Part shown: positions 4,336-49,147 of the stretch, in pieces
Position numbering within the stretch: the first letter of the stretch is position 1
How the letters are laid out: each line of letters opens with the position of its first letter
Notes under the pieces: generated by a model
Databases searched by the model: none
The model's input: the letters and a program-made list of their open reading frames with translations, nothing else
What the model was told of the DNA's origin: nothing
Made by a program: the position numbers and the translations under genes
From: Candidatus Porisulfidus sp. TsSOB
GTDB lineage: Bacteria; Pseudomonadota; Gammaproteobacteria; Poriferisulfidales; Poriferisulfidaceae
Direction of reading: 5' to 3'
NCBI GenBank assembly: GCA_002631715.1
Contig: MRSX01000003.1
Coordinates: 361,286-425,285, forward strand
DNA: 64,000 bases

Positions 4336-6939
4336 TCAGTCGTCATCTGCGGGAGAATCCAGTTTCCGCAATTCATAAATCAGGTCTAGAGCCTCCTTCG
4401 GCGACAACTGGTCGGGCTTCACCTGTCGGAGACGTTCCAGAGCGGCCGGGACGGATGGGGGATCGGAGGGCGGCACGAACAGATCTTTTTGCGGATTGCT
4501 GCGTGCCCAGCGCTGGGTGCTGTCGTCCTCAAGTTCCAGCAGGTATGCTTGGGCCCGTTCCAGCACCGGCGCAGGAATGCCCGCGAGGCGCGCGACCTGC
4601 AGGCCGTAGCTCTGGCTGGCGGGCCCTTCCTTGACGGCGTGCAGGAAGACGATCTGTTGGCCATGCATCGTGGCGTCTAGGTGCAGGTTGACGATCCCGG
4701 GATGGATCTCGGCCAGCTGGGTCAACTCGAAGTAGTGCGTGGAGAAAAGGGTGAATGCCCGGTTTCGGGTGGCCAGATATTCGGCACAGCCCAGTGCCAG
4801 CGCCATCCCGTCGAAAGTGCTGGTGCCGCGACCGATCTCGTCCATCAACACCAAGCTGTATTCAGAGGCGTGGTGCAGGATGTTGGCGGCTTCCGTCATC
4901 TCAACCATGAATGTGGAACGGCCAGAAGTCAGGTCATCGGAGGCTCCGATTCGGGTGAAGATGCGATCGATGGGGCCGATCCGGGCCTGCTTGGCTGGCA
5001 CGTGACTGCCGATGCAGGCCATCAGTACGATCAGTGCGGTCTGCCTCATATAGGTGGATTTGCCGCCCATATTCGGACCGGTGACGAGGAGCAAGCGGCG
5101 TTGCTCGGAGAGCAGCGTGTCGTTTGGCACGAATGGTTCGTTCCAAGTCAGTTCGATTACCGGATGGCGACCGGCTTCAATCTCGACGCCAGGTTCGTCG
5201 ACCAGCTCGGGGCAACAGTAATGGTGCGCTTTGGCCTGCTCGGCGAAGCTACAGAGTACGTCCAGTTCGGACAGCGCGTCTGCGCATTGCTTGAAATGGT
5301 TCAGGTGTGGTGTCAGGCTTTCCAGAAGATTCTGGTAAACCTGTTTCTCCCGCTCCAGCGCCCGGCTGCGTGCACTCAGGACGCGGTCCTCGAATTCCTT
5401 CAGTTCCGATGTCAGGTAACGCTCGTAGTTCTTGAGCGTCTGCCGCCGCCGGTAGTGATCGGGCACCCGCGCGGCTTGACTGCGCGGGACCTCGATGTAG
5501 TAGCCGTGAACCCGGTTGTAGGCGACTTTGAGCTGGGCAATGCCGGTGCTCTCCCGTTCGGTTGCTTCCATCTCCAAAAGAAAATCGTCGGCTCCGCGCG
5601 ACAGTTCGCGCAATTCATCCAATTCGGAATCGAATCCCGCCGCAATGGCGCCGCCTTCACGAATGGTCGGAGGAGGATTATCCGCGAGTGCTGAGGCCAG
5701 ATGTACGGCCAGTTCCGGATCCGATTGCAGATGGGCGCGATAGGAATCGAATTCTGCTGCGTCGATGTTCTCCAGCAAGCGGCGCAAGTCCGGCAGGCGC
5801 TGCAGGGTCTGAGCCAGGCCGCACAGGTCCCGCGGAGAAGCGGTGTATAGCGCAAGGCGGGCAATGACGCGCTCGATGTCAGAGACTTTCTTTAATTGTT
5901 CGCGAATCGGGGCGCGGTGAGTGTTGTCCAGCAGGTGGGAAACGATTTGGTGGCGTGTCGCCAGCATTTCCCGGTTGCGAAGGGGAGACTGGATCCATCG
6001 GTTGAGGCAACGACGGCCCATGGCCGTGACGGTTTTGTCCAATACACCGAGCAAGCTGTGGCGGGAATCGCCGGAGATGGTCTGCTCCAACTCGAGATTG
6101 CGTCGGCTGGTGGCATCCAGGTAGATATGAGTGTCGCGCCGCTCCCGTTGCAGGCTCGTGATATGCGGCAGGGCCGCTCGTTGCGTCTCTTGAGCGTAGT
6201 AGAGCAGGGCTCCGGCAGCTCCGGTGGCGGAGGGTGCGTCTTGGCAGTCGAAGGCGGACAGGTCATGAACCCCGAGTTGTTGGCACAAGAGCCGTGTGGC
6301 GGTCTCAACGTCGAAGTGCCAGTCCGAAAGAGGCTGCCAGTGCGTGTCTTCCCAGTCCGGAGGGGTGTTCGATTCCGGGTACAGGATTTCTGCCGGACGG
6401 AGACGTTCCAGTTCCGCGTACAGGTCTTCGATGGATGGAAGCTCCATTACATTGAAGCGTCCCGAACTCAAGTTCAGGCTGGCCAGCCCGATCGGATCCC
6501 CCGGCCACAGCGCAAGCAGCAACGTGTCGCGTCCGGCGTCCAGCAGTTCATCCTCGATCAGGGTTCCGGGCGTGACGATGCGCGAGATCTGGCGTTCCAT
6601 CGGCCCCCGGCCGGACGGGCTGTCGCCAACCTGTTCGCAAACCACCGCGGATTCCCCGAGGTCGACGAGTTTTGCGAGATAGGAATCAAGCGAAACGACC
6701 GGGATGCCCGCCATCGGGATGGGTTGACCCTTGGAGCGCCCCCGTTCGGTCAGCACGATATCCAGCAATTCGGAGCCGCGTTTGGCGTCCTCGAAGAACA
6801 ACTCGTAGAAGTCTCCCATTCTGTAGAGCAGCAGGTGCTGAGGATATTGCGCCTTGAACTCAAGGTACTGGCGCATGCTGGGAGTGTGCTGCTGCTGCGG
6901 CGTGGGTGAAGTCAACAGTGGAGCCGGTTGCAGTGCCAT
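4336..6939 (-). CDS. mutS: DNA mismatch repair protein MutS
   Basis: N-terminus [34 protein letters not shown] and Walker [14 protein letters not shown]. 867 aa. Confidence 0.95.
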
Positions 6940-7256: not shown

Positions 7257-8792
7257 GTGAAATTTCTCAACAACTTCCTATCCAGAAACCGCGGGCTCGT
7301 CATCGCCGGTTTTGTGGTTCCCGCCAGTTTCGTCTACCACAATGTCGAGAATCTTCGAAAACGGATTCATCGGATGTTGAGGAACACCAGCGCTGAACAC
7401 GACAAAGCCGTCCAGACGATCCAAGCTCATGTGCAGGCTTGCCATGCCACTGGAAAATCAATGTGCACCGCGCGCAAGCCATGGCGAACGATGTCGGTGC
7501 GCAGCGCCGAGTTCAAGAAAGACATGCAGCAGGTTTCCATCAACCTTTGCAATGTCCTTGAGGTCGACGAGAAACGTTTAATCGTTCGCACAGAGCCGAT
7601 GGTCACCGTGGGAGATATTACTTCCTTTCTTGTTCCCAGGGGATTCGCGCTCGCTGTCCAGCCCGAGATGGAAGATCTTACCCTTGGAGGTCTGTGCATG
7701 GGCATCGGCATTGCAACAGGCAGTCACCGAGAGGGCTGCCTGTTCGAGTCGGTCGAGGCCTTCGAGATCGTTACCGCTACCGGAGAGTTTGTTCGCGCCA
7801 CGCGTGACCAGAATGCCGACCTTTTCCACGCTCTGCCCTGTTCCCACGGCACCCTAGGCTTTCTCGTAAGTATTGAGTTTCGCATTGTCCCGATTCAGTC
7901 GCACGTCAAACTCGACTACGAACCATTCCACTCGATCGACGCCTTCTGTGCACGCCTTGAGGAGCTTACCGCTTCCTCCGACGCCCCGCGTTTCGTAGAA
8001 GGACTCGTCTTCTCCAAGGAATCCGGCGTCATACTCGTTGGCGACTACGCGACACCCCCGCCCGGCGCACGCATCAATCGTATCAATGATTACTATAAGC
8101 CATGGTTTTACAGCCATGTTGGCCAGTGTCTGAAGACCGGGGCTGCCAGCGAATACATTCCTGCCCGTCATTATTTCCACCGCCACACGCCTTCCGTGTA
8201 CTTCCAACTGAAGGACCTCATTCCTTTTGCCAACACATCTTGGTATCGCTATTTGTGGGCTTGGATGGGTGCGCCGAAGGTCTCTCTGTTGAAACTGACG
8301 GTAACCCGGGAGCTCCGGCGCCAAGCTTTTGAAAACCGCGTCGTGCAGGACATCATGGTACCGATTGAGAACCTTGCTGAGTCTGTCCGCCTTAGCGACG
8401 AACTGTTCGATATCTACCCACTTTGGGTTGGGCCGGTGCGCCTCTTTGACCACGGTGCGAACGAGGGTTTTTTGCGGAATCCGGCCAACGGCGGCAGTAG
8501 CCAGATGTACGTCGACCTTGGCATTTTCGGTATCCCGCCGAATGCCAAAGCCGGCAACTACGACCAGGTGCCAACCATGCGCCGCCTAGAGAAGTTCGTC
8601 CGTGAGCGTGGCGGTTACCAGATGCTCTATACCGACATCTATATGACTCGCACCGAATTCGAGCACATGTTTGAGCACCGGCTCTACCGGAATATGCGTA
8701 ACAAGTACGCTGTCGAAAACGCCTTCCCCGAGGTCTACGACAAAGTAATACCGGAGAGTTGGCTCATTGATCTGCGAAGCACATCACCATGA
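7257..8792 (+). CDS. FAD-linked oxidoreductase, DHCR24/DWF1-like (delta-24 sterol reductase family)
   Basis: 511 aa. N-terminal TM helix followed by a PCMH-type FAD-binding domain. Same length and architecture as DHCR24. Sits in the sterol cluster. GTG start. Confidence 0.55.
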   Translation: MKFLNNFLSRNRGLVIAGFVVPASFVYHNVENLRKRIHRMLRNTSAEHDKAVQTIQAHVQACHATGKSMCTARKPWRTMSVRSAEFKKDMQQVSINLCNVLEVDEKRLIVRTEPMVTVGDITSFLVPRGFALAVQPEMEDLTLGGLCMGIGIATGSHREGCLFESVEAFEIVTATGEFVRATRDQNADLFHALPCSHGTLGFLVSIEFRIVPIQSHVKLDYEPFHSIDAFCARLEELTASSDAPRFVEGLVFSKESGVILVGDYATPPPGARINRINDYYKPWFYSHVGQCLKTGAASEYIPARHYFHRHTPSVYFQLKDLIPFANTSWYRYLWAWMGAPKVSLLKLTVTRELRRQAFENRVVQDIMVPIENLAESVRLSDELFDIYPLWVGPVRLFDHGANEGFLRNPANGGSSQMYVDLGIFGIPPNAKAGNYDQVPTMRRLEKFVRERGGYQMLYTDIYMTRTEFEHMFEHRLYRNMRNKYAVENAFPEVYDKVIPESWLIDLRSTSP

Positions 8793-8883
8793 CGGAGCTG
8801 CAACATTGAACTCGGTTTCCCTGCATTCTCTTCCGCTCAGCTTTCACGCTCGCCTTCTTGTTGCGCTGCGAAGATTTCTTGGC

Positions 8884-10221
8884 ATGCTGCTAGCGTTGAA
8901 TTTTGTGGCGCTGTGGGCAATACCCATCGTGGCTCAGGGCCGATTGTTTCGCGCCGGGTTACACCGTTTTCTGCGGCCCATCCACCGCCTCCTTGACCAT
9001 TCGGTTCTGTTGCGACACGTTGCCACAAAATACGTCTACCGGCGATCTGTGCATGCGGACTACTTTGCATCCGCAATATTTCTCATGATTGGTCTTGCGC
9101 TATCTCTCGCTGTACTTTTTACCTGGCAAATCTTGTTCGGAGAACTGCCATGGTGGCTCTTAGCGGCATACTATTTTGCATGGGTGGGATTTGGTGGCCG
9201 TGGTATGGGGACGGCATACACCTTGGCCCATCGCGAGGGCCATGTTGCAGGAGGCCGCATGTACCGGCCATGGATCGCCAAACACATTGGAAATATTTTT
9301 GAGAACCGCATCGGTCTATGGTACGGCCTCGTTCCGCACACGTTTTCGACATCGCATATTCTTCTTCATCACCGGCTGAATGCCGGCAAGGCAGACCCGC
9401 TTTACGTGTGGGATCTCGACCGCACCAAATTTAGCGACATGCTTTTGTATCAATGGCGGGCATTCGTGTACGTGACCGGCCTTGGCAGCATTCGAGAATT
9501 CCGCAGACAACAAGGCGTAAATCCGGCGATCCGAAAGGCGCATGCCAAGCTGTCGCGCGGCATGCGGATCTATTGGGTGTATGTGCCGGTGGCACTTGTT
9601 GCACTACTGGTGGCCACGGGCTCGAGTGTTTTATCGTCGCTCATGTTTCTGTTTTTTGTCTACATCCAACCGCTTTTTGCAATGTCGACGTTCATCGCAC
9701 TTGTGACTCTATCGCAGCATGGATTTCTTGAACATGACGAAAAAGGACGAAACCTGAAACACGTGGCTGCGATTACTATTTTAGGTGGTCATGACGATTC
9801 CTTCGGAGAAGACGATCATTTCTCACACCATTATTCTCCTGCTGTTATGCACGACAAACTGGCAGTGGCGCAATCCCTTGAAGAAAGCGAATGGGCTCGT
9901 TGTCACGGTTCCGTCTTCAAGGACACTTCCATAATCGAGATTGCGATTTTTTTGCTGCTTGGGCGGATTGACCGGCTGATTGATCGTCACTACGTAGATT
10001 ACTCAGGAGCACTGGGGAGAGATCAAATCGTCGAGCTGTTTACCCGCCGTGCAAAACGTAAGGAAATGAGCTATGAGGAATATGAATTTCGGTATCTTCC
10101 GGCACTAAGGGACAGCGTTCGCGATCACGTGAAACAAGGCCTCTTCAATAACGAAAACCATGCGTATATTTTCCAGGCCCATCACGAGATTGGTCCCGAG
10201 TTCAGGATGAGCCGAACTTGA
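8884..10221 (+). CDS. Membrane-bound His-box di-iron oxygenase (fatty-acid desaturase/hydroxylase superfamily), putative sterol desaturase/oxidase
   Basis: Multiple TM helices and three histidine boxes: HREGH, HILLHH, HDDSFGEDDHFSHHY. First ATG after the stop of the upstream gene taken as start; a TTG at 8806 is also possible. Confidence 0.5.
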   Translation: MLLALNFVALWAIPIVAQGRLFRAGLHRFLRPIHRLLDHSVLLRHVATKYVYRRSVHADYFASAIFLMIGLALSLAVLFTWQILFGELPWWLLAAYYFAWVGFGGRGMGTAYTLAHREGHVAGGRMYRPWIAKHIGNIFENRIGLWYGLVPHTFSTSHILLHHRLNAGKADPLYVWDLDRTKFSDMLLYQWRAFVYVTGLGSIREFRRQQGVNPAIRKAHAKLSRGMRIYWVYVPVALVALLVATGSSVLSSLMFLFFVYIQPLFAMSTFIALVTLSQHGFLEHDEKGRNLKHVAAITILGGHDDSFGEDDHFSHHYSPAVMHDKLAVAQSLEESEWARCHGSVFKDTSIIEIAIFLLLGRIDRLIDRHYVDYSGALGRDQIVELFTRRAKRKEMSYEEYEFRYLPALRDSVRDHVKQGLFNNENHAYIFQAHHEIGPEFRMSRT

Positions 10222-10233
10222 ACGAGCGGCGAC

Positions 10234-11301
10234 TTATTCAGTTCCTCGATTCTCGGGTTTGCGGGCCAGGAAGAAAAATGCCGGGGTAAAGAGACCGGAT
10301 TCGCCCCCTGCGACCAGTGCGTCCGCCCCCCTGTTCAGCAATGTGCTGACCATGGTGGAGCCTTTCGGAACGACCCGCAGCGTCTCCCCGACCCTTAAGG
10401 TCAAATTGGTCAGGGCGCGCCCGATGGGTGTGCGCGGAATGCTCGCGAGACTAAGGTCGCGACCCTGCAGGGCGCGATACCAAGGCATATCCGGATCCGC
10501 TTCGGGGGCGAGGTCGCGGGCTTCCAAAAACTCGAACCCAGCCGCGCTCAATGCGGGGCCGATTTCCGATGTGATGGTGATATCCGGTAGCCCATTCCCT
10601 TTCTCGATATCTTTCTTGATCCGAAGGTGCCGGGCATTCTCCGGATCGAAGTCCTCGGTGAGGCACCACTCGTAGCCCGCGAAGCAGGCTCCTGGGCGCA
10701 GGATGCGGAAGACCTCCCGGAACGCTGCGATCTTGTCCGGCGCGTGGGGCATGGACTCGATCGCGATGGCGGCGTCGTAGGAGTTGTCGTCCTCGGGAAT
10801 CTGCATGAAATCACCGTGGATGAAGCGGCACAGCGACTGGATGTCTTGGCTTTGTGCTTCGGCACGCTTGATCTGGTAGGCATTATTGTTGAGACCGACG
10901 AAACTGGCCCCGGAATAACGGGCCAGCGTGCGCATTGGTCCCCCGATCCCGCAGCCCAGGTCAATGACCTGCATCCCGGGTTTCAGTGACAGCTGATCAG
11001 CTAGGAAATGCTCGTGCCTGAGCAGTGACTCCTTGAAGCTTTCGCCTCGAAGCCGGGGCGCGAAGTGAAAGGACTGACCCCAGCCGAATTCGTAAAAGTC
11101 GGTCGCCAGGTCGTAGTAGTGATTGACGAGTATCTGGTAGTCCTCTTTCCTGTTCTCCAGGTCGTCATCGTGGAGCCCGGTGTACTGATCGACCGCCTGG
11201 GTCACTTCATCCGGAGTGAGATCCGAGAAGGAACGGGAACTCGATTGTTTGGTGGAGGTGCGGCTCATTCGGTTATCCTGCCAGTTCGCGCTCTTCTTCA
11301 A
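10234..11301 (-). CDS. Sterol C-24 methyltransferase (ERG6/SMT family)
   Basis: Signature YYDLATDFYEFGWGQSFHFA (SMT region I) and SAM motif VIDLGCGIGGP. ATG overlaps the stop of the upstream SQMO-OSC ORF (ATGA). Confidence 0.8.
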   Translation of the reverse strand: MKKSANWQDNRMSRTSTKQSSSRSFSDLTPDEVTQAVDQYTGLHDDDLENRKEDYQILVNHYYDLATDFYEFGWGQSFHFAPRLRGESFKESLLRHEHFLADQLSLKPGMQVIDLGCGIGGPMRTLARYSGASFVGLNNNAYQIKRAEAQSQDIQSLCRFIHGDFMQIPEDDNSYDAAIAIESMPHAPDKIAAFREVFRILRPGACFAGYEWCLTEDFDPENARHLRIKKDIEKGNGLPDITITSEIGPALSAAGFEFLEARDLAPEADPDMPWYRALQGRDLSLASIPRTPIGRALTNLTLRVGETLRVVPKGSTMVSTLLNRGADALVAGGESGLFTPAFFFLARKPENRGTE

Positions 11302-14300
11302 GAAGCGGCAGATACGCTGTGCGGCTCTTCCAGGGCCGCTGCCGCCAAAGGCACCGTGTCGCTCTCAATTGCGTCGGTAGCAAGGGAATCGGCAGTTGCC
11401 AGTTCCAGCCGGGCCCGGCGCCGTTGCTCATAGAGGCCAAGCGCGCGTAGGGGGAAATACTGCCGATACAGAACGTAGTCCAGCAGGGCCGTACGGAAAA
11501 AGACCCCGGCCATGTCTTGCTTGGGCCATGCGCCATCCGCGTTTTGGGTGTCGAGCAGGAACCGGGCACCCCGCGAGATCGCGGCCCAGTTGGGATCGTC
11601 CGCCTCAAGGAGCGCAATCAATGCCCATGCGGTCTGGATAATCTGGCTTTCGTCGTGTGCAACGTATTGGCCGGTGAAGCAACCGCTGTAGTGCTCACCC
11701 CATCCTCCGTCTCCGCGCTGACGGTCCAGCAGCCATTGGCAGGCCAAGCGTAGTACCGGATCGCCGGGGCGGGCCCCGGCTGCAAGCAGGCCCCTGATTC
11801 CGAAGGAAGTACCGTAGATGAACTGAACCCCCCATACGCCGCGCCACGATCCATTGCTTGCCTGAGTCCGGCGAAGCCAGGCGCCGGCTTGCGACATGGC
11901 ATCCGTCACTGCTTGGTCCGTGGTGTCCGGAAAGTGCTTCTTGCAGGCTGCGAGTGCCGCAAGGCAAGAAGCGGTGCACTCGACATAGGAATGTTCAGTC
12001 ATCGACTCGCCGAACATCTCGGCCGGATTCAGCCATTCAAGCCCGATTACGGAGCGTTGCGCTTCATAGCTGCCGAAACCGCCATCGCGGTTCTGGCCCC
12101 GCAGCATGAACTGGATCGCGTCTTTGAGCATGGTTGTGTTCGTCGCCTCGCGGTGGGCAGCGATAATTCCGAGCACTGCTTCCGCAGTGCAGTCGGTGAC
12201 CGGCCAGCCATGCCACTGTCCGGCAAAGCACCAGCCACCCTTGGGGTCGTTTCGAAAAGCCTCACGAAATCCTTCGAAACTGGTCTTGATTTGTTGCGTT
12301 TCCAGGAAATCGGCCCCGCGTTGGAGGGAATTTCGAACTTCAGGGGCCAGATCGAGTCTGGACATTGTTTCCAATGCTTGCAGGGCGAAGCCGGTATCCC
12401 ACGAAATGCTTCTCGCCCCGGTGACTCGTGCCCCGTATTCCTCGTCTTCCCAGATCCAGTCGTCCAATTTCTCGAGTGCTTGGCGACTGTCGGGGTCGTT
12501 CGGGTTGCGCAGCCATAAGGCCAGGATGTTGAGGAGCCCGCTGACCGGGGAGATGCTCGTGTGATTGGTCGTTCGCAGTTCCCATTGGATTCGCTCGGTG
12601 ATCGTGTCCATGCATCGAGCGCGCAGGTGTTTACTATGGAATCGTTCAAATAACTGCGAAAACCCATACCCGACCCGGAGCCATACACTGGGCCGCGCAT
12701 GGAGGTCGGCGCTTCGCAGACGATTGCGGCCCGCGGAAAAGCCGACGTTGGCAAAACCCTCGGGATATAGCTCTTCTCGCAGTGATGCGATCAAAGGCGT
12801 GACAGGTGCCTGAAACCGATATGAGTAGACAGCCGACATCGCCATGTAGATGAGCCGGGTATGGCAATACCAGTTGGAGGGGTGCAGCGGAATCCAACGC
12901 GGCAGGCTCCACAGTTCCGGCAGGATGGCGTTGATTCCGCGCCAGTCGTAGAGGTTGAGGAGCGCCAGCCAGAATTTTCCCCAACTCGGAATGCCGAGGA
13001 CTCCTTCGGTCTGCAGGAATTCCTGGGCCGGCTTCAGCAGTGGATCATCCCGCTCGACGCCAAGCAGCCTCGCCGCGACGTAAACCAGCGTGGTGACAAA
13101 CAAGTTGGGAGGCGGGTGCTCGTGCAGGCCCCATGCGCCTCCTTCTAGGCGAGTCTGTTCGAAAGACCGCAGCACGCGTCGGCGTCGGTCGGGATCGAGC
13201 GGCTGCTCCATGATGTAGTGCAGCAGTACGTACTGCGCGGTGAGCATGGGGCACCAAACCATCTCGCCTTCCCAGGCGCCATCCCCATCCTGGAGATCCA
13301 GCAGGCGCTCGCTCGCGCTCTTCAATGCCGGGCCGGCATCGGGCGATTCGACCGTCCACGGGCGGGCGGGTTGAGAGTCGTCGGCCTTCGACGGGATGGA
13401 GACCAGGAACGTGTGGGACCAAGTGGCCCGGATTTGCTCGTCCTCTCCTTCGCCCGTGTTTCTCGCCCGGTGCAACATCCGAGCACCCCGCAGCAACCAT
13501 TTGAGACGGCCCGAGAGTGAATTGAAGGTATCCCGGGCACGGCGCCAGGCAAGTTTGTCGAAGGATCGCGGCATTTCTCTGGCAATCGCCCGGACCATCG
13601 TCGTGAAAAACGCGGAACTCAGGTGGATAACCGATGTGTCTTCACAGGCGAGTAAACGCATGGTCCGGTCGCGCATCGTAGAATTTGCCCGCCAGCCTCG
13701 GTAGGTTGCATGTCGGAGAGCCACCACCTCGGCCCGATGATCGGCAAAGACCTCGTAGAGTCCTATGGCAAGGAACTCCGGAGTACGGATCGCCCGGAAA
13801 CGCTTCTTGGTGAAGTCGCGAAAGTCCCCGTTCTCGGCGAGTGCAAGCGCATCACCGAAACCGAGGGTGATTCCAACCGCCGACATGGGATGGTAGTGCC
13901 CGGCCGCATCGCCGATCAGCACTCGATTCGGACTCCCGTAGCTAACACGCGGCCTCAGCTTATTACTGGCAGTGCGAAACCGCCCCGCCCGCAGCGCTTC
14001 AACAAACGCGGGTCGGACTGATTCCGGCAACCAACCGGTGTACGAGTCCAACAGGAACCCAATCCGATCCCGGGGTGTCCAGCGATCCGCCGGAACATCT
14101 ACGACGATGCGCACGCCGCGCTCTCCGAGGCGGTACATGAGGATCGGCCCGGGTCCACCCCCCAACACGTACCCATAACCCTCCAACGGCAACGTCACGT
14201 CATCGACCAAAACTCCTACCATCCACGAGCAAGTTTTATGGTTCGTCGGCAAGCCCAGTGATCGACGCACGACCGAACCCCGACCGTCGGCACCGACGAT

Positions 14301-14759
14301 CCGCGCAGCCGCGACAGACTCATCGGTCCCGTTGCGAGTAAAAGTGATTCGTCCGTCTACGACCTCACGAACCTGTGCATTGAGAATGAAATCAATACTC
14401 GATTTGCTCTCGATCGCTTCGTGCAGATGCGAGACGAGCACCGCATGCTCGCAGGCCAACCCGTGAGCGCCGTCCGGATAGGGAAGTATGATCGGTTCCG
14501 AGTCGTCTTCCGGGCACACCACGAACCCGTTGCCTGCCCCGATGGGAGGCTGCGTGTCGAGCCCGATCCCGATCTCGCGCAGTATCCGCACGGCGGGGGG
14601 GTGCAGCCATTCTCCCGCTAGTCGCTTGGAAGCCTCGGGGCTCGCTTCGAGCAGGACAACCCGGGCGCCTTTTCGCGCGTAGGCGAGCGCACACACACTG
14701 CCGACTGGCCCCCCGCCGACAATCGCGACATCGTAATGCCGGGTGGGGGGGATGCTCAC
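11298..14759 (-). CDS. Fused squalene monooxygenase (N-terminal) and oxidosqualene cyclase (C-terminal)
   Basis: N-terminal half has the FAD motifs DVAIVGGGPVGS and LIGDAAGHYHP of squalene epoxidases. C-terminal half has QW repeats and VTDCTAEAV (OSC-type DCTAE, not SHC DxDDTA). One uninterrupted frame. Start taken at a GTG (14759) overlapping the CYP51 TGA; the ORF-track TTG at 14828 is the alternative. Confidence 0.8.
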   Translation of the reverse strand: MSIPPTRHYDVAIVGGGPVGSVCALAYARKGARVVLLEASPEASKRLAGEWLHPPAVRILREIGIGLDTQPPIGAGNGFVVCPEDDSEPIILPYPDGAHGLACEHAVLVSHLHEAIESKSSIDFILNAQVREVVDGRITFTRNGTDESVAAARIVGADGRGSVVRRSLGLPTNHKTCSWMVGVLVDDVTLPLEGYGYVLGGGPGPILMYRLGERGVRIVVDVPADRWTPRDRIGFLLDSYTGWLPESVRPAFVEALRAGRFRTASNKLRPRVSYGSPNRVLIGDAAGHYHPMSAVGITLGFGDALALAENGDFRDFTKKRFRAIRTPEFLAIGLYEVFADHRAEVVALRHATYRGWRANSTMRDRTMRLLACEDTSVIHLSSAFFTTMVRAIAREMPRSFDKLAWRRARDTFNSLSGRLKWLLRGARMLHRARNTGEGEDEQIRATWSHTFLVSIPSKADDSQPARPWTVESPDAGPALKSASERLLDLQDGDGAWEGEMVWCPMLTAQYVLLHYIMEQPLDPDRRRRVLRSFEQTRLEGGAWGLHEHPPPNLFVTTLVYVAARLLGVERDDPLLKPAQEFLQTEGVLGIPSWGKFWLALLNLYDWRGINAILPELWSLPRWIPLHPSNWYCHTRLIYMAMSAVYSYRFQAPVTPLIASLREELYPEGFANVGFSAGRNRLRSADLHARPSVWLRVGYGFSQLFERFHSKHLRARCMDTITERIQWELRTTNHTSISPVSGLLNILALWLRNPNDPDSRQALEKLDDWIWEDEEYGARVTGARSISWDTGFALQALETMSRLDLAPEVRNSLQRGADFLETQQIKTSFEGFREAFRNDPKGGWCFAGQWHGWPVTDCTAEAVLGIIAAHREATNTTMLKDAIQFMLRGQNRDGGFGSYEAQRSVIGLEWLNPAEMFGESMTEHSYVECTASCLAALAACKKHFPDTTDQAVTDAMSQAGAWLRRTQASNGSWRGVWGVQFIYGTSFGIRGLLAAGARPGDPVLRLACQWLLDRQRGDGGWGEHYSGCFTGQYVAHDESQIIQTAWALIALLEADDPNWAAISRGARFLLDTQNADGAWPKQDMAGVFFRTALLDYVLYRQYFPLRALGLYEQRRRARLELATADSLATDAIESDTVPLAAAALEEPHSVSAAS

Positions 14760-16144
14760 TGGAAAATGCTGGCCTGCGGGCGGCGGCGGTAACGGATTCG
14801 GCAGGGTTCCCTGGGGCCTGTCACCCAACTGCCGTAATTCGGTTCGGGAAACTCGGTGACGGGCTGAAAATCAAAGCGATCAAACAGCACGGTCCAGATT
14901 GCTTTCAGTTGCATGTAAGCAAAATGTTCACCGATGCACCGGTGTTTGCCGCCGCCAAAACTGATCAAGGCATAGTGGTGCTGTTTGCCCTCGGATGCAG
15001 GTGGGGCGAAACGGTCTGGGTTGAAGCGGTTCGGATCGGCAAACAGGTGGGGCAACCGTTGGGAGACCGCCGGCGACACCATGGCCAAGGCACCGGCTGG
15101 CACGACATGATCCTTGTAGTGCAAGGGCCTGAGTACCTTGCGGATTAGCATGATCAACGGCGGGTGCATCCGCTCGCATTCGCGAATGGCGTGCTCTAGT
15201 GTGACTTGGTGCCTGAGGCTCTCGTAGCTCACGGTTCCTGCCTCGCGGTAGGTGTCTTGCACCTCGTCTTTCACCCGCGCCAGGTACGACGGGGCCCTCA
15301 TGAGTTCCAGAAGGGTCCAGGTTGCGAGCACCGCGCTGGTGTGCTGGCCCGCGAACAGCACCGTCAGCAGGATTCCGGTAATCTCGTCATCGCTTGGGGC
15401 GTGGCCATCCTTGTACCGAGCGTTCATGAGGGTCTGCATGAAATCTTCAGGCTGGGCATCGGTTCGCCGACGTTCCGCCATGATCTGGCCGAAGAGCTTG
15501 GCGACTTTTCGGCGGGCCCGGTCGCGGCTCCGATGTGCCGGGATTGGGAGATAAGGGAAAAAGAACCCCAGGGTGTTGATGCCGTTTTGCAGTTCGTGGT
15601 ATGCCTCGGCGAATCCTGCGTCCAGCTGGGCCCGGACTTCCTCTCCAATGAGGCAACGGCTGGCGATCTTGACGGTGAGTTCGTTCATAGCGTGGGGCAG
15701 GTCGACTTCCCCATGCTCGCCGAGATCCTCGGCGAACTGCCAAGTCTCCTCGAACATGATGCGGGCGAACCGGCGCATCGCGGCTTCATTGAGCGCCGGA
15801 TACAGAAATCCCAATTGCTCGAGCATCAGTTCAGGCGTAGTGTCGTAAGCCACGCCACGCCCGAAGATGGGCACCGTGAACTGGTAGACCTCTTTGGCGC
15901 TGAGCTGGTCTTCGGGTGCGTGGAAGTAGAAGTCGTGAGCTTCGGGCCCGGTGAAGAGGAAGAATTCGCGCGGGCCGAGCCGGAACCGGATGAGCTCGCC
16001 CTGCTCGCGCCAGCCGCGCTGCAGCATCGCGATCGGGTCCTTCTGGAAATCCAGCAGATGGCCGATCAACGGCCACCTGCCCGCGACCTCGGGAATGGCC
16101 CGGGACTCCTGCGGCGAAAGTGGGGTGGAACGTACGGTGGTCAT
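14756..16144 (-). CDS. Sterol 14-alpha demethylase (cytochrome P450 CYP51)
   Basis: Heme loop FGGGKHRCIGEHFA, I-helix AGQHTSA and B' region YQFTVPIFGRGVAYD are CYP51 signatures. Start at MTTVRS, 14 nt after the reductase stop. Confidence 0.8.
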   Translation of the reverse strand: MTTVRSTPLSPQESRAIPEVAGRWPLIGHLLDFQKDPIAMLQRGWREQGELIRFRLGPREFFLFTGPEAHDFYFHAPEDQLSAKEVYQFTVPIFGRGVAYDTTPELMLEQLGFLYPALNEAAMRRFARIMFEETWQFAEDLGEHGEVDLPHAMNELTVKIASRCLIGEEVRAQLDAGFAEAYHELQNGINTLGFFFPYLPIPAHRSRDRARRKVAKLFGQIMAERRRTDAQPEDFMQTLMNARYKDGHAPSDDEITGILLTVLFAGQHTSAVLATWTLLELMRAPSYLARVKDEVQDTYREAGTVSYESLRHQVTLEHAIRECERMHPPLIMLIRKVLRPLHYKDHVVPAGALAMVSPAVSQRLPHLFADPNRFNPDRFAPPASEGKQHHYALISFGGGKHRCIGEHFAYMQLKAIWTVLFDRFDFQPVTEFPEPNYGSWVTGPREPCRIRYRRRPQASIFQ

Positions 16145-16158
16145 GTCGTCAGGTTGCT

Positions 16159-17253
16159 TCAATAGACGAATGGCAGCATCGCGAAACGCACTCGCTTCGT
16201 ATACCGCTCCCACAGTTCGCCGTACTTGGCGCGGCAGCGACGGTCGTCGCGTCTTGAGCGATGCGACAACAGACCCACCAACCACGCGGGCAGCAGGTAG
16301 GGCACCCAGGATGCGAATCCGGTGGTCAGGGCGAACGAAAAGTAAATGCAGATCTCGCCGGTATAGTTGAGATGCCGCCCGACTCCCCAGAACCCGGAGA
16401 CCAGCAGGCGCCCGTCCAGGGACTCGGCGGGCTTCCCCCAGATCTTGGCGTGGGAGTCACGCTTGAAACGGTGCTTTTGCCCGTTGGCGCCGCGGAAGAG
16501 CCAGAAGCCGAAGACAAACAGCAGGGTGATTGCGACGGCAGCGACGGGGGACAGGGGCTCGGTTGCATGGACCAGCCACCAGCCGGCAAGGCAATAGAAG
16601 AACGGCACCAGCACGTAGTCTCCCCAGACCAGCATCCATCCGAAGCGCTCGCTGACGATGTCCCAGGTGTGAACCATTCCGTATTCGAAGTGGAAGTAGT
16701 TGAGGACGTACAGGAAGGTGAAGGCCTGGTAAAGCATCATGGCCAAGGTCAGTTCGCCGTAGGTTTCGTATTGCACGGCGGCGAACGAGACGTTGAACAA
16801 CGCGAGGCCGATGAGGGAAGGGCGGTAACTGAAAAACTTCAGATCCACCCCAAACCAGGTCGGATGGCCTTCCACGCCATAGAAGAAGCCCTCCAGTCCT
16901 CTTGGGGAATCGCCCTGGGCTCGGGTGCCTTGGTAGTACAGCAAGGCGGAAAAAGCAAACGCGAATACGTTCGCCACCACGAACAGGGCGAGAAAGTGGG
17001 TATACAGCACCGAAAGAGAGAACCAGCCGGAGACTTGGGCAAGCCCTCCCACGACCATGGTCAGCAGGAACAGGGCAAGCCCATTGCTCCTGTAGATCCT
17101 TGATTTTCCATCGTAATCTGGACCCGTAATCCGGCGTCCGGGCAACAGCATCGAACCCAGGAACAGAAAGCCGAAGAATGCCAGCATCATGGCTGCCGCG
17201 TCGAGCAGGGTGCTGCCGGACAGCGCAATCAGCGAGAAGGGCAGTTCAGGCAT
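16159..17253 (-). CDS. Sterol reductase, ERG4/ERG24 family (C-14 or delta-24(28)/delta-7 reductase)
   Basis: Polytopic membrane protein with the C-terminal signature LLVSGFWGVGRHLNYTGEICIYFSFAL. Confidence 0.8.
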   Translation of the reverse strand: MPELPFSLIALSGSTLLDAAAMMLAFFGFLFLGSMLLPGRRITGPDYDGKSRIYRSNGLALFLLTMVVGGLAQVSGWFSLSVLYTHFLALFVVANVFAFAFSALLYYQGTRAQGDSPRGLEGFFYGVEGHPTWFGVDLKFFSYRPSLIGLALFNVSFAAVQYETYGELTLAMMLYQAFTFLYVLNYFHFEYGMVHTWDIVSERFGWMLVWGDYVLVPFFYCLAGWWLVHATEPLSPVAAVAITLLFVFGFWLFRGANGQKHRFKRDSHAKIWGKPAESLDGRLLVSGFWGVGRHLNYTGEICIYFSFALTTGFASWVPYLLPAWLVGLLSHRSRRDDRRCRAKYGELWERYTKRVRFAMLPFVY

Positions 17254-18343
17254 AGGTGTTGCCGTTCTCCGCTTTGCGTGCCAGGTATTCCCGCCACTTG
17301 CGCACGGTCACGTCCTGGAAAGCCTCGACCACGGGGTTGAACTCGACGGTCGGAGCGTCCCAATGTTTTTCGTAACCTTCCTGTTCTCCTTCGAGCGCGT
17401 ATTGATCCTGGGTGAGCAACGGGCCGATGAGGATGCGGTTCGAGATCTTTAGAACAAAGGTCATGGCGAAACGGGGAATGTGGACCGGCAGAAAGGGTAT
17501 CTTCAGCGACTTGAAATAGAACAAAAAGAAGGTCCGGGTGGTCCGCTCGTCGATGGGCAGCACGAAAAGCCAGTGTTTGATCCAGTCATCGGTGTTCGAC
17601 CATTGGTAAGGGTATTGGAAGCAGAGATCCATGTGATTGGTGTCGAGTTTTTTGTGGTCGACGAATAGCCCGGAGATACGCCCGCGTCCGACCTGAGTCT
17701 CGTAGGAGAGGTGCACGTCATCGCCGATGGTCTCGCAGCGGGTGAGGGTGGCGCCGACGAAAGGCCGGTATTCACGGTGCAGATGGGCATGAGAGAAGTC
17801 GCTCACGTTGTCGATCACCATAGAGTGGTGGGCCGACCAGGTGAAAGTGAGCGGGACACAGGCCCATCGGCCGCGTCCCTCGAGTTCGGGGATGTCCGGG
17901 ATCTGCCGCGATTCCGCCTTCTCCGGGTCTCCGGGAAACAACCAGACCAGGCCGTAACGGACTTTTACGGGGTAGGATCGGATCGAGACGTTCTGACAAC
18001 TTTCCCCGAGGTGCTCGCGAGGCCCTCCGGCACGTTGCCCCTCTCCGTCGTATTGCCAGCCATGGTAGGCGCAGACCAGCCGACAGTCCTCGACATGGCC
18101 GAGGGAAAGCTTGAGCTGGCGGTGGGCGCAACGATCCTCGACCGCATGGAACGAGCCGTCCTTCGCCCGGAACAGTGCGATGGCATGCTTCCAGAAAACG
18201 ACTTCAGTCACGCTTCCCGGCTTGACGCGACGTACTTCTTCGACCGCGTACCAATAATCCGGGTCCATGCCCGCGGCGCGTGCTTTCTGGCGTAAATTGC
18301 TGGCTTCATCGAAGCCAGGAGGCGGGCTTGTCATTGAGTCCAT
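17246..18343 (-). CDS. Rieske [2Fe-2S] non-heme iron oxygenase, SdmA-like (bacterial sterol C-4 demethylase oxygenase)
   Basis: Rieske motif CAHRQLKLSLGH...CAYHGWQY. Location between a sterol reductase and an NAD-dependent reductase mirrors sdmA-sdmB. Confidence 0.65.
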   Translation of the reverse strand: MDSMTSPPPGFDEASNLRQKARAAGMDPDYWYAVEEVRRVKPGSVTEVVFWKHAIALFRAKDGSFHAVEDRCAHRQLKLSLGHVEDCRLVCAYHGWQYDGEGQRAGGPREHLGESCQNVSIRSYPVKVRYGLVWLFPGDPEKAESRQIPDIPELEGRGRWACVPLTFTWSAHHSMVIDNVSDFSHAHLHREYRPFVGATLTRCETIGDDVHLSYETQVGRGRISGLFVDHKKLDTNHMDLCFQYPYQWSNTDDWIKHWLFVLPIDERTTRTFFLFYFKSLKIPFLPVHIPRFAMTFVLKISNRILIGPLLTQDQYALEGEQEGYEKHWDAPTVEFNPVVEAFQDVTVRKWREYLARKAENGNTYA

Positions 18344-18344
18344 T

Positions 18345-19487
18345 TCAGCCTCCGTCCGAAGTGATGGGTGTGCCTTGATCCGGCATGAGTTCTTCTACTT
18401 GTCCCGCGCCGTCCGTGCATGGGGGTTTCGCGTCCGGGTTCGTGATCGCCTTGCGCTGGTGGTAGTGAAAGGCGTAGGCTTCGTGGACCGCGGCGCGGAT
18501 GCTGGTCGGTCGGTAGCCGAGTTCCTCTTTCGCCTTGCTGTTGTTGGCATGGCGGCACTTTTGCAGCAGGCGGATGGCGCCGGGAGTGAAGCGCTGGGGG
18601 AAGCTCGGATGGAACCGGCTCAGGTAAAAACTGGCCACTTCCGAGAAAGCGAGCATCGCGCGGACTGGAATCCGCCGGTGCGGGCGCGGGATGCCGGAGA
18701 CTTCCTCGTACAGGTCGATGATGTCGGAGATGGTTTTGTACTCGGAACTGAAGATATATTTCTCGCCCGAGCGTCCTCGGTCCATGCACAACCGGTGTCC
18801 TTCAACGATGTCCCGTGCCGCGACAAACTCGAAGCCGCCATCGACGTAGGCATGGAGTTTGCCGTTCGTGTAATCGCACAGGGTTCTACCCAATCGCGAG
18901 GGGAAGAAATCGCTGCCCCCCACAACCGCGCAGCACGTCGCGACCAAGACGTCCTGTCCGGCTGACGCGGCGCGCCAGCACTCGTGTTCGACGAGTGTCT
19001 TGCTGCGCTCGTAGGGCATCGTACGTTCCATGGGATAGAAAAGCATCGTCTCGTCGCTGGGGGCGGAAGGGTCATCCAGGTTGTACCCGACCGCGCTGAA
19101 GGAGCCCGTCACGACCACCCGGCCGGCTTCCGTCTCCCGTGCCGCCTGCAGCATGTTGCGGGTGCCGAGAACGTTGCATTCGTATATTTCCCGACGGTGG
19201 GCGTGGTTTCCTTCGATGGTCGAAACCTTGGCTGCACAGTGATAGACGCCCTGGCAGCCCTCGACCGCACGCCTGACGGAATTCAAGTCCCGGAGGTCGC
19301 CGAACACGCGTTCGACCTCGAGGCCTTCCAGCGCCTCGTTGTTCTCTTCGTGTCTTAGCAGCACCCGGACCCGGGTGCCTTCGTCGAGTAGCCGGCGCAC
19401 GAGATTGGCGCCCACGTGTCCAGCCGCACCGGTAACGAAAACGGGTGCAGCCGATGAATTGCCGGGTGTGCTCGATCCTGAAGTCAT
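18345..19487 (-). CDS. NAD(P)-dependent epimerase/dehydratase (3-beta-HSD-like) family reductase, SdmB-like
   Basis: Rossmann motif VFVTGAAGHVGANLVRRL and catalytic YERSK. First gene of the minus-strand sterol operon. Confidence 0.65.
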   Translation of the reverse strand: MTSGSSTPGNSSAAPVFVTGAAGHVGANLVRRLLDEGTRVRVLLRHEENNEALEGLEVERVFGDLRDLNSVRRAVEGCQGVYHCAAKVSTIEGNHAHRREIYECNVLGTRNMLQAARETEAGRVVVTGSFSAVGYNLDDPSAPSDETMLFYPMERTMPYERSKTLVEHECWRAASAGQDVLVATCCAVVGGSDFFPSRLGRTLCDYTNGKLHAYVDGGFEFVAARDIVEGHRLCMDRGRSGEKYIFSSEYKTISDIIDLYEEVSGIPRPHRRIPVRAMLAFSEVASFYLSRFHPSFPQRFTPGAIRLLQKCRHANNSKAKEELGYRPTSIRAAVHEAYAFHYHQRKAITNPDAKPPCTDGAGQVEELMPDQGTPITSDGG

Positions 19488-19747
19488 CTTGGCCCTGATT
19501 CCGAAACTCTGGTTATTTCCGTCCGTTGTTCGGCGTCATCGAGGGCGCACGCAGGCGAATACGTTTGATGGACAAGCGCGTCACGGAATTAGCCGCTCCA
19601 CGATATTTTCTTCAAGCCCATCGGGTAGCTGGGCACCGATCTGCCTGCCAGTCATCCCTCGCATATGACTGATGACATAATTCTAACAAACTTATAGTTT
19701 GGCACCGAAGTGCGCAGACCTGCAGAATTTTTTGAGAGTGAGGGTGC

Positions 19748-20077
19748 CTATTTCGCAGGAGCGAAGAGGATTACTAGGGTGAGAATGCCGGTTATGGTTC
19801 CGGTTGCCCCGCCCGCGACGGCCAGGATGTGCCAAGAGAGTTTATTGAACCTTGCTTCCATCTCCCCACGCAGTCTAAATTCCATCTCCGCCAAGTCAGC
19901 CTTCGTCGCTAACTCGCTTTGCGCATCCTGAAGGGTCTCGACCAAGGTCACGGCCTGTTTGTCTCCGAATTCTGCTTTCTTCAGATTCTTGACAGCCCGC
20001 AGTGTATCAAAGTTCGGCGGGGTGACCTTTTTGCGCGCATCGGTTGTGGCTTCGGACCTTTTTGCGCTCGGGTTCAT
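19748..20077 (-). CDS. DUF1640-like coiled-coil protein with C-terminal TM helix
   Basis: LATKADLAEMEFRLRGEMEARFNKL... followed by a hydrophobic tail. Start at MNPSAKR with a strong SD (AAGGAGA). Confidence 0.45.
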   Translation of the reverse strand: MNPSAKRSEATTDARKKVTPPNFDTLRAVKNLKKAEFGDKQAVTLVETLQDAQSELATKADLAEMEFRLRGEMEARFNKLSWHILAVAGGATGTITGILTLVILFAPAK

Positions 20078-20389
20078 ATCGGTTCTCCTTGACGGGGGCG
20101 GGATGAATGTGGGGAGACTCTTTCTATTGAGGGTCTCCATGGCTAGGTTCGGGATGATGCCATGAGATCGGTGAAAATCAAGGAAAAATGGTCGGAATTT
20201 TTAGACCGTTTTTTCTAAATTAGAATCAAACGGTTAGAGATCAAACTGAATGCCTGTGAGTCGGATTTTCGAGAGTTTTTCGTGTTTTTAGTTTCGTGGG
20301 CTCGTCGATTCCTGCAGAGTGCGGATTTTTCGACTCGGCCGGATGGATCAGACCCGGATAACCATACTAAGGGCTTCCGGAGAAGGGAT

Positions 20390-20779
20390 TCACGGAACTG
20401 AGAGCCAGCCGCGGATTTCGGCTTGGATGCTTCTTATCTGCCTGAGCGCAGCTTGAATTTCGGAAGGCTCAGGAGGTCTTGGAAATTCGCCTTCGGCATC
20501 CGGATAACGCCAGGCGGTTGCTGCCCCGGTGAGGCTGTCGAGTTTGACGAGGCTTTTCCTGAGAGGGTGTTCTTGGGCTAGTTGTTCGGTAATTCGGGTG
20601 ATGTCGTGGGTACGAAGATCCGGGAGCCCTTCGTGCAGGCACACGGCACGCGCGAGTTTTTCTGCAGCCTGCTGGGCGTGGAATGCCGCCAGGTCCGGGA
20701 GGTCTGGAAGGAGAAGATCGACGCCAGCGATATCCCGTTCGGCGGTCTTCAGGAATCCTAGGACAAGCGGAGAGGTCAT
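20390..20779 (-). CDS. HEPN domain protein (toxin component of a HEPN/MNT pair)
   Basis: AAFHAQQAAEKLARA-type HEPN helix. ATGA overlap with the upstream MNT gene. Confidence 0.6.
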   Translation of the reverse strand: MTSPLVLGFLKTAERDIAGVDLLLPDLPDLAAFHAQQAAEKLARAVCLHEGLPDLRTHDITRITEQLAQEHPLRKSLVKLDSLTGAATAWRYPDAEGEFPRPPEPSEIQAALRQIRSIQAEIRGWLSVP

Positions 20780-21308
20780 CGCAGGGGGAATGTCTCGCGA
20801 TAGCGTTTCCAGAACGGACCATCAACGCGCGCATCCAGCAATTTTCCCTCCCGGTCGACCGCGTAAGGGAGCATGCCGGGCACTTTCCGATTCTTCTCGA
20901 ACGCAGAATACTGGCAAGGAACTACGTCCACCGGGACACCACACCCGGAAATGGGTTTCCGAGCCGTCAGGTAATCGAGAGGTTGGTCGTCCGGGGTGAT
21001 CACCATCAGGTCGAAGTCACTGTCCGAGCGCGCGGTGCCGCACGCGCGGCTGCCGAACAGGAAAATGGCATCCGGATTGAATGCGATAGCCAGATTCATG
21101 GTCAGAACGGAAAGAGCGACTTCCGCGTTGCGGAATGGGCCAAGACTCTCATCTGCCGCTGCGGCCTCGTGCCTTGGCTGAGGCGCATTGCGAACGTATT
21201 CCAGGACTAGGCCAATCAATTCCGGGTCATCTTTGATGGAATTAACCAATTCGCGCACATCGGCTTGCTGATCTTGGCGTACGCGGAAACTGATGATGGG
21301 GGTATTCA
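20776..21308 (-). CDS. Minimal nucleotidyltransferase (MNT) antitoxin with N-terminal extension
   Basis: LFGSRACGTARSDSDFDLMV nucleotidyltransferase motif. Start at MNTPIISFRV with an AGGAGG SD. The N-terminal ~50 aa may form a ribbon-helix-helix. Confidence 0.6.
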
Positions 21309-21397
21309 TGGAATCCTCCTGTGTATTACACTCTGTAATACACATTTGAGAAATGTAAAGCATGCGGGAGTGTCTGTCAAACAGGTATGATTGAAGC

Positions 21398-21992: not shown

Positions 21993-23022
<1,030 letters not shown>

Positions 23023-23042
<20 letters not shown>

Positions 23043-26059: not shown

Positions 26060-26060
26060 C

Positions 26061-47137: not shown

Positions 47138-47266
47138 TTTCCACTAAGTAAAAAATACGATCTACTTTGCGACGAACCAAGCTCTATGGGGGCGTTCTTG
47201 TATACTGGCGTCCGTCAGAATTTAGAGTATTTATACCGTCCGCCTGTTTGGTAGCTGGGACTAAAA

Positions 47267-48121: not shown

Positions 48122-48178
48122 CAGGGTGGATATCATTTATCCCTAAACAATTACACCTTATCCCAACCCGAACAAACC

Positions 48179-49105: not shown

Positions 49106-49147
49106 GTAGTACCTTTCTGCAAATTGTAAGGTGTCCGCAGGTCCATA

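Follow-up and report, generated by a model that had tools for sequence, protein, structure and literature searches.

A conserved single gene predicted to combine squalene monooxygenase and oxidosqualene cyclase in the sterol operon of Candidatus Porisulfidus

Can a single bacterial gene encode two consecutive enzymes of the sterol pathway as one polypeptide and, if so, is the fusion real, is it new, and what might it do? The question is raised by a 64,000-nucleotide stretch of contig MRSX01000003.1 (positions 361,286 to 425,285; assembly GCA_002631715.1) from Candidatus Porisulfidus sp. TsSOB, referred to here as the window. According to the ORF listing of the window, one minus-strand open reading frame (ORF; 11298..14828, 1176 codons) encodes a complete FAD-dependent squalene monooxygenase (SMO, also called squalene epoxidase) and continues in frame into a complete oxidosqualene cyclase (OSC). 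The gammaproteobacterium Porisulfidus has been named as a known sponge symbiont (PMC12988363) and has served as an outgroup to the SUP05 sulfur oxidisers. Our analysis indicates that this ORF is very likely a genuine, conserved bifunctional gene of the MsbE type, so called after a fusion gene from a sponge symbiont.

The original prediction of a single SMO-to-OSC frame at 11298-14828 was borne out exactly, with four Pfam domains in order and all well over their gathering scores: FAD_binding_3 (residues 32-331), SE (178-419), SQHop_cyclase_N (503-796) and SQHop_cyclase_C (809-1134). The predicted range of 1153-1176 codons was also right, with 1176 counted from a TTG and 1153 from a GTG lying 23 codons further in. 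The real gene is probably the shorter version (11298..14759, minus strand, GTG start, TGA stop at 11298-11300), because the GTG at 14759 overlaps the TGA of the CYP51 gene as GTGA, most homologues begin there, and a public NCBI assembly contains an identical 1153-amino-acid protein, encoded on a contig of 444,506 bp. The 23-codon in-frame extension up to the TTG (14760..14828, minus strand), which overlaps the 3' end of CYP51, is probably not translated, and block conservation is 0.06 across residues 1-20. At the other end of the protein, a C-terminal tail (11301..11408, minus strand) is weakly conserved (block conservation 0.17-0.33), has dN/dS values of up to 0.69 and is modelled with low confidence (pLDDT < 50 at residues 1129-1153). 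The motifs expected from the original prediction translate as such, HYDVAIVGGGPVG at 14700-14738, IGDAAGHYHP at 13887-13916 and VTDCTAE at 12180-12200, and at least four QW-type motifs (Q-x3-G-x-W and variants) are readable in the ORF translation. SMO and OSC in one frame, and a length within the approximately 1110-1180 residues of MsbE-type fusions, place the gene in that family.

A sequencing or assembly error, such as an indel near 13300-13600 that joined adjacent SMO and OSC genes, would yield the same frame, and unfused relatives do exist: plasmid p2 of Planktothrix agardhii carries an OSC that is 54.5% identical to the OSC domain together with a separate FAD monooxygenase gene, and the closest unfused representatives are the OSCs P0129 and P0131. 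Related genomes were therefore the place to look for a stop codon or frameshift at the junction. Relatives are encoded at 529 places in GTDB contigs searched at one genome per species, and all locus counts given here refer to the best 80 of these 529. Each of the 80 carries the fused gene (64-93% identity), many of them in megabase-scale records titled 'chromosome', and in 80/80 species-level genomes the SMO and OSC matches share the same frame with no stop across the junction. One stop was flagged in three loci in the tblastn alignments; it lies at the true C-terminal end, where the alignment had read through, not at the junction. These genomes are independent and derive from many projects, more than 120 protein clusters are full length, the identical protein is present in another public assembly, and the linker is conserved in length and under purifying selection in this frame. 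The fused ORF is not an assembly artefact, an explanation to which we assign a negligible probability, and the predicted covalent fusion of a complete SMO and a complete OSC stands.

The junction itself lies in an inter-domain linker of approximately 25 residues, FLVSIPSKADDSQPARPWTVESPDA (13335..13409, minus strand), which is rich in Pro, Ser and Asp and has no regular structure in the model. The last SMO helix ends near 13410 and the OSC begins at 13334, in agreement with the junction originally placed at 13400-13480 (residues 449-476). Confidence falls to pLDDT < 50 at residues 448-467 of an otherwise confident model. The length of the linker is conserved, its sequence less so; in an alignment of 31 sequences the region 421-500 is gapped in only 8 of 85 columns, and R441, W444 and S477 are invariant. 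Pairwise dN/dS was 0.11-0.50 in the linker and 0.07-0.28 in the two domains, which together with the conserved length indicates that the linker is both translated in this frame and subject to constraint. The two domains are joined end to end: unfused SMOs (442-444 amino acids) align up to fusion residues 449-452 and unfused OSCs from residues 497-518 (1176-codon numbering). As judged from these alignments, the fusion-specific part is a short Pro/Ser-rich tether.

A tether of this composition and low model confidence resembles many protease-accessible linkers, and the fusion could in principle be one gene for two proteins, separated by linker cleavage or by an internal start for the OSC and joined only for co-expression. 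A Met at linker position 478 (1176-codon numbering) is present in 65% of the aligned family and might provide such a start. However, it is replaced by Ile in the window protein and its closest relatives, so that there is no conserved internal start, and promoter-like signals inside the gene were not above chance. An internal OSC start is unlikely because the only recurrent linker Met is missing from the window protein and its nearest relatives. The conserved linker length and a pTM of 0.87 for the predicted structure also fit a single functional unit better, and we regard separation into two proteins as quite improbable.

The N-terminal half of the fused protein, including a C-terminal helical region, corresponds to 13410..14738 on the minus strand (residues 8-450 of the 1153-amino-acid protein). 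Its SE domain (PF08491) scored 81.2 bits (cut-off 20.1) across profile positions 6-263 of 276, and FAD_binding_3 scored 78.4 bits (cut-off 22). The motifs of class A flavoprotein monooxygenases, GGGPVG (GxGxxG), GADGRGS (DG) and IGDAAGHYHP (GD), align with human SQLE and are invariant across the fused family. The FAD-binding GGGPVG (14700..14717, minus strand) is invariant in unfused relatives as well, and the GD motif (13887..13916, minus strand) aligns with LGDAYNMRHP of human SQLE. The best solved relative of the domain is human SQLE (6C6N; E 8e-23, approximately 22-24% identity); the model superposes on it with a target-normalised TM-score of 0.82 and a root-mean-square deviation (rmsd) of 2.8 Å over 438 alignment columns of the 450-residue chain, and pLDDT is 80-96 over most of the domain, with the C-terminal helical region included in the SQLE-like fold.

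The identity to SQLE is low enough to ask whether this flavoprotein might be a class A monooxygenase of another kind, such as a UbiH- or PqsL-like enzyme or a hydroxylase that tailors sterols, and became fused to a cyclase by chance. Many UbiH/UbiF family models also match its N-terminal Rossmann part, and two residues of the substrate and inhibitor pocket of human SQLE are not kept (Y195F and Q168H). These substitutions are, however, shared with nearly all aligned bacterial relatives, fused and unfused, and on this sequence comparison they represent the bacterial state rather than a defect of the window gene. Moreover, the SE profile is matched over 258 of its 276 positions at 81 bits (cut-off 20.1), SQLE is by far the best solved relative (E 8e-23 compared with 1e-7 for VisC), and the superposition covers almost the whole SQLE chain. 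No other SMO candidate was seen in the operon, and the OSC requires an epoxidised substrate. A different monooxygenase activity is accordingly very unlikely, and SMO, EC 1.14.14.17, is the preferred assignment.

The C-terminal OSC domain (11409..13334, minus strand; residues 476-1117) has the two-domain make-up of alpha/alpha-barrel cyclases, with SQHop_cyclase_N (172.5 bits) and SQHop_cyclase_C (179.7 bits), and it matched the NCBIfam model for squalene/oxidosqualene cyclases (TIGR01787) with 518 bits relative to a cut-off of 322.7. Aligned to human lanosterol synthase (1W6K; E 2.7e-137, approximately 37% identity), the modelled domain reached a target-normalised TM-score of 0.86 with an rmsd of 1.7 Å, and the residues D455, C456, C533, H232, Y503, W387, W581, F444, F696 and Y704 are conserved. 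The first five of these, namely the catalytic Asp with its partner cysteines and the H232/Y503 pair of the deprotonation step, are kept in 22 of the 22 sponge-family sequences of alignment A2. The alignment to 1W6K further places both the catalytic Asp (human D455) and a product-determining Val (human V453) within the motif VTDCTAE (12180..12200, minus strand). Human position 453 is Val in the window protein, Ile being the cycloartenol state, and among the bacteria tested by Wei et al. 2016 (PMC4919349) there was a complete correlation between V453 and the formation of lanosterol instead of cycloartenol. The predicted product of the OSC domain is consequently lanosterol, as for an OSC of the lanosterol-synthase type (EC 5.4.99.7).

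Both folds and their catalytic motifs are thus those of human SQLE (6C6N) and lanosterol synthase (1W6K), with the difference that the eukaryotic SMO and OSC are two separate proteins. The original prediction knew of no earlier description of such a fusion, and this novelty did not survive comparison with the literature: the fusion has been in print since 2020, the exact 1153-amino-acid protein is public at NCBI, and the window gene is a typical member of a widespread, published family. Mohanty et al. 2020 (PMC7074536) described a locus, msb (GenBank MT026193), from a gammaproteobacterium that lives in symbiosis with the sponge Melophlus sarasinorum; its product MsbE has an N-terminal squalene epoxidase and a C-terminal cyclase that was called a lanosterol cyclase from its key Val. 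MsbE shares the architecture of the window protein, SMO first and cyclase second, and the msb locus has the same six-gene order (msbA oxidoreductase, msbB Rieske protein, msbC reductase, msbD demethylase, msbE fusion and msbF sterol methyltransferase, SMT). An entry of nr named 'squalene--hopene cyclase [uncultured bacterium]' (QIJ55911.1; 1153 amino acids, 93% identical to the window protein) would, we infer, be MsbE itself. At 93% rather than 100% identity, msb comes from another strain or species, and a divergent gene pair beside the SMT in the window is absent from the description of the msb locus.

The second precedent is Brown et al. 2023 (PMC10070321), who used the term 'fused SMO/OSC homologs' for sequences that they trimmed, and whose Supplementary Data include one gene ID (...1000083512) that matches both ERG1 and ERG7. 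This gene is number 12 on scaffold JGIcombinedJ30088_10000835 from an Aplysina aerophoba symbiont, and its neighbours, SMT (11), ERG11 (13), ERG24 (14), sdmA (15) and sdmB (16), follow the order of the window; unlike the window, the scaffold has a second SMT (gene 9). Brown et al. assayed SMTs, not the fused gene (PMC10070321). Kelly et al. 2022 (PMC9531527) reported ERG24-CYP51-LSS clusters in 115 of 537 metagenome-assembled genomes (MAGs) from Ircinia sponges. The MAGs belonged to 10 phyla, and both horizontal transfer and purifying selection were reported. In that paper the gene is labelled LSS/ERG7 only, with no mention of a fusion, and the LSS nucleotide alignment of 3765 positions fits the fused length; the spread of these clusters over many phyla is like that of the fused gene here. 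The searchable literature on the fusion yielded only the two bioinformatic mentions by Mohanty et al. and Brown et al. and no functional test, and the main texts of Hoshino & Gaucher 2021 and of a 2025 triterpenoid-cyclase preprint do not mention it.

How might the two halves work together? An AlphaFold2 model was computed on a 71-sequence alignment that included divergent fused and unfused relatives; it has a mean pLDDT of 88.8 and falls below 50 only at residues 1-4, 448-467 and 1129-1153. An earlier run on a shallow 31-sequence family alignment was discarded (pLDDT 61.6, pTM 0.45, OSC domain poorly modelled). No solved chain spanning both domains was found in a Foldseek search with the model. 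The larger domain makes up approximately 55% of the chain and by itself gives a query-normalised TM-score of only approximately 0.55; compared with this value, the pTM of 0.87 implies that the predictor is confident of the relative placement of the domains, which suggests that they are docked. No transmembrane-like segment was detected in the fused protein. The long basic helix before the linker (residues 426-455 in 1176-codon numbering) has a strongly amphipathic character and a net charge that reaches +5, and in the superposition it sits where the C-terminal helices of human SQLE lie; it probably rests on the membrane surface.

By homology, the N-terminal FAD-dependent SMO would convert squalene to (3S)-2,3-oxidosqualene, and the C-terminal OSC of the same polypeptide would cyclise 2,3-oxidosqualene to a protosterol, predicted to be lanosterol from the Val at 453. 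Both steps would then take place on one polypeptide at the membrane surface, coupled by proximity and by a 1:1 stoichiometry, with the two monotopic active sites held side by side on the membrane and a short path for the lipophilic intermediate. The fusion would also compact two steps into one transferable gene and operon. The most likely benefit would accordingly be the combination of fixed 1:1 stoichiometry, adjacent active sites and compactness.

A stronger form of coupling, put forward in the original prediction, would be true channelling, in which a fixed complex with a continuous hydrophobic path lets 2,3-oxidosqualene bypass the membrane pool. The confidently predicted orientation implied by the pTM relative to the size of the larger domain would be consistent with such a complex, as would the persistence of the fusion in at least 10 clusters at 50% identity and the repeated fusion of SMO to a pathway neighbour, either OSC or squalene synthase. 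However, from one fused family to another the aligned domains lie 30 to 106 residues apart, a spread in keeping with a flexible tether. Human SQLE and OSC are both monotopic membrane proteins, and their substrates partition into the lipid bilayer; for such enzymes proximity alone may suffice. The lability of the intermediate, which the original prediction invoked, is a weak argument for channelling because 2,3-oxidosqualene is not notably labile. A closed channel is possible, with the pTM value as its one support, and we consider channelling rather doubtful compared with simple coupling by proximity.

Several observations weigh against a bifunctional SMO-OSC that makes lanosterol from squalene. 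The OSC domain scored 736.2 bits with TIGR03463 (2,3-oxidosqualene cyclase), under the curated cut-off of 851, although this was nonetheless the best-scoring model and the match spanned the whole profile (positions 2-633 of 634). The His at position 449 corresponds to the state described in cycloartenol synthases and the Ala at position 381 belongs to neither eukaryotic pattern, so that the product prediction depends on V453 by itself; relative to the human enzyme, T381A and C449H are the common state in bacterial relatives, fused or unfused. The docked arrangement of the domains derives from a single model statistic, the pTM. No squalene synthase is encoded in the window, nor in the 80 loci at a distance of up to 8 kb from the fused gene, and the substrate supply must therefore be encoded elsewhere; Mohanty et al. 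(PMC7074536) say the same of their symbiont. Finally, the searchable literature yielded no evidence at the biochemical, transcript or protein level for a single member of the fusion family. A genuine bifunctional gene of the MsbE type nevertheless remains the preferred reading.

Comparison with more distant relatives shows that the joining of SMO to its neighbours is not confined to this family. Planktothrix agardhii has homologous SMO and OSC families as separate genes on opposite strands, approximately 1.8 kb apart, and Streptomyces sp. YIM 121038 has three separate genes in the order OSC, squalene synthase (SQS), FAD-oxidoreductase. The Planktothrix locus (L083, NZ_LR882940.1), from a cultured cyanobacterium, is a 62-kb plasmid on which a triterpenoid cluster with an unfused OSC, a separate FAD monooxygenase, a squalene synthase and three P450s lies by insertion sequence (IS) elements. 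When the library is clustered at 50% identity, a single representative, P0057, stands for the whole sponge family. Besides it there are at least nine SMO-OSC fusions of full or nearly full length at 39-49% identity (P0121-P0126, P0128, P0132 and P0134), and three fragments also cross the SMO-OSC junction (P0127, P0133 and P0138). One divergent fusion occurs in a differently ordered cluster, SdmB-P450-Rieske-fusion-EBP-ERG24. In a neighbour-joining tree calculated without support values, one region contains the fused OSC domains along with a few that are unfused; no count of fusion events was taken from this tree.

The closest unfused OSC, P0129, comes from a cluster whose SMO is joined to squalene synthase instead. 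Such proteins have an N-terminal SMO and a C-terminal SQS_PSY domain and are 1009-1200 amino acids long (P0203, P0210, P0213, P0223, P0229, P0254 and P0264); a 1017-amino-acid gene of GCA_039186435.1 is of the same kind. Most contain approximately 400 residues without a Pfam match at E <= 1e-8 between the two domains. In locus L086 (1-2425), the SMO-SQS fusion is clustered with SdmB, SdmA, HMG-CoA reductase, an unfused OSC and SMT. As in the window, the same kind of N-terminal SMO is covalently joined to a pathway neighbour, with the difference that the partner is the upstream rather than the downstream enzyme and that the OSC is a separate gene in that lineage. Bacterial SMO is thus repeatedly attached covalently to one of its pathway neighbours. 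Neither the SMO-SQS family nor this generalisation was found described in the literature that we could search.

A further case may exist in GCA_041156705.1, where a 1281-amino-acid gene (L082, 4100-7945) lies directly upstream of the divergent SMO-OSC fusion P0132; its Pfam matches to HMG-CoA_red, polyprenyl_synt, SQS_PSY and 3Beta_HSD/Epimerase make it a candidate for one more multi-enzyme fusion in this pathway. The CYP51-ferredoxin protein of Methylococcus capsulatus (PMC7947880) is another natural fusion in a bacterial sterol pathway, linking an enzyme to a redox partner rather than two consecutive pathway enzymes. The CYP51 of the window has no match beyond its P450 domain.

The fused gene is widespread. 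Among 5.8 billion proteins searched, relatives were found in more than 120 clusters at the 90% identity level, with lengths of 1107-1179 amino acids, 68-94% identity and 92-99% query coverage. The window protein shares its 90% cluster with the NCBI MAG proteins MDE0152770.1, MCY3852602.1 and MDE0302576.1, and it is 93-94% identical to P0001 and P0002, the latter being QIJ55911.1. At the genome level, its nearest relatives are MAGs with the titles 'Ca. Porisulfidus', Chromatiales and Gammaproteobacteria bacterium RHO3_bin_14, and the MutS encoded in the window is 97-98% identical to those of MAGs with the latter two titles. One of the loci, from an 'uncultured candidatus Porisulfidus' chromosome (L005), reproduces the layout of the window exactly: recA, the operon, SMT, divergent desaturase-family and flavoprotein genes, and mutS. 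The order sdmB-sdmA-ERG24-CYP51-fusion is kept in approximately 65 of the 80 loci, and CYP51 occupies the same relative position in approximately 70.

Beyond these close relatives, the fused gene was found in MAGs labelled as more than 10 phyla, with titles including Binatia, Nitrospirales, Acidimicrobiales, Alphaproteobacteria, Bryobacterales, Opitutales, Rhodothermales, Longimicrobiales and Nitrospinaceae, among others. Between the window copy and those of Binatia, Nitrospirales, Acidimicrobiales and Alphaproteobacteria, dS is only 0.7-1.0 at approximately 70% protein identity. Such low values fit a comparatively recent transfer of the operon between phyla, as reported by Kelly et al. 2022 (PMC9531527). 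Eight loci carry the fused gene with no other operon gene within 8 kb (L019, L021, L035, L036, L041, L053, L060 and L066), three of them titled Acidimicrobiales or Acidimicrobiia. A protein search of 72,556 plasmids with the fused gene found only unfused OSCs and squalene-hopene cyclases (SHCs) and no fused copy, and there is therefore no evidence for a known plasmid carrying it.

A more far-reaching proposal can also be made: SMO and OSC might form a fixed, co-evolved assembly with direct transfer of the intermediate, which helped the operon to work after transfer into MAGs labelled as more than 10 phyla, and bacterial SMO may need tethering to a pathway neighbour. We offer this as a speculative and on balance unlikely hypothesis; if true, a self-contained squalene-to-lanosterol module would be part of what let the operon function after its transfer among phyla. 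Whichever form the coupling takes, bacterial sterol synthesis in sponge symbionts bears on the question of who makes sponge sterols, and on a second debated question, the reliability of 24-isopropylcholestane as an animal biomarker (Brown et al. 2023, PMC10070321). In the predicted scheme, both entry steps of the sterol pathway, described as oxygen-dependent, would fall to one protein, which occurs in hundreds of symbiont genomes. One gene of approximately 3.5 kb that should turn squalene into lanosterol would be a handy part for metabolic engineering, and it offers a natural setting in which to ask whether joining two monotopic membrane enzymes covalently leads to channelling.

The genomic setting of the fused gene is a minus-strand operon in the order sdmB-sdmA-ERG24-CYP51-[SMO-OSC]-SMT, which is probably co-transcribed. 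Its first gene encodes an SdmB-like NAD(P)-dependent sterol C-4 demethylation protein (msbA-like; 18345..19487; Epimerase, 3Beta_HSD) that scored 306 bits with NF052578, below the cut-off of 600. This is followed by an SdmA-like Rieske C-4 methylsterol monooxygenase (msbB-like; 17246..18343; Rieske and VanA_C), also below the cut-off of its model (403 bits with NF052579, cut-off 600), an ERG4/ERG24 sterol C-14 reductase (msbC-like; 16159..17253; PF01222, 239 bits), and a CYP51-type sterol 14-demethylase (msbD-like; 14756..16144; p450, 199 bits) whose stop overlaps the start of the fusion. Downstream of the fusion lies a sterol C-24 methyltransferase (SMT, msbF-like; 10234..11268; Sterol_MT_C, Methyltransf_11), with its ATG at 11268, 30 nt after the fusion stop, and an AGGA seven bases upstream of the ATG. 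The genes are tightly packed, with the CYP51/fusion overlap GTGA at 14756-14759, an 8-nt overlap between ERG24 and sdmA, and 1 nt between sdmA and sdmB, which suggests translational coupling.

The operon lies between mutS (4336-6939) and recA-alaS-lysC (21993-27281), and its G+C content (0.606) equals that of these flanking housekeeping genes, indicating that it has long been resident in the lineage. Scans of 9800-20800 for promoters and terminators gave counts no higher than in shuffled sequence and so say nothing about the operon boundaries. A nucleotidyltransferase-domain ORF (NTP_transf_2 / Polbeta; 20776-21516, minus strand) is located within the 2.5 kb that separate the sterol operon from recA.

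Beside the SMT, a divergent gene pair on the plus strand (7257-8792 and 8767-10221) encodes a VAO/PCMH-type flavoprotein with a match to FAD_binding_4 only and a 484-amino-acid membrane protein of the FA_desaturase family without an NCBIfam match. The pair has a G+C content of 0.51-0.55, compared with 0.61 in the operon. Among close relatives, only the window, L003 and L005 have both genes; L039 and L056 have the desaturase gene by itself. These may be accessory sterol-tailoring genes. Elsewhere in the window, the G+C content falls to 0.48-0.49 at 46000-52000, relative to a window mean of 0.58, and this region may be a horizontally acquired island.

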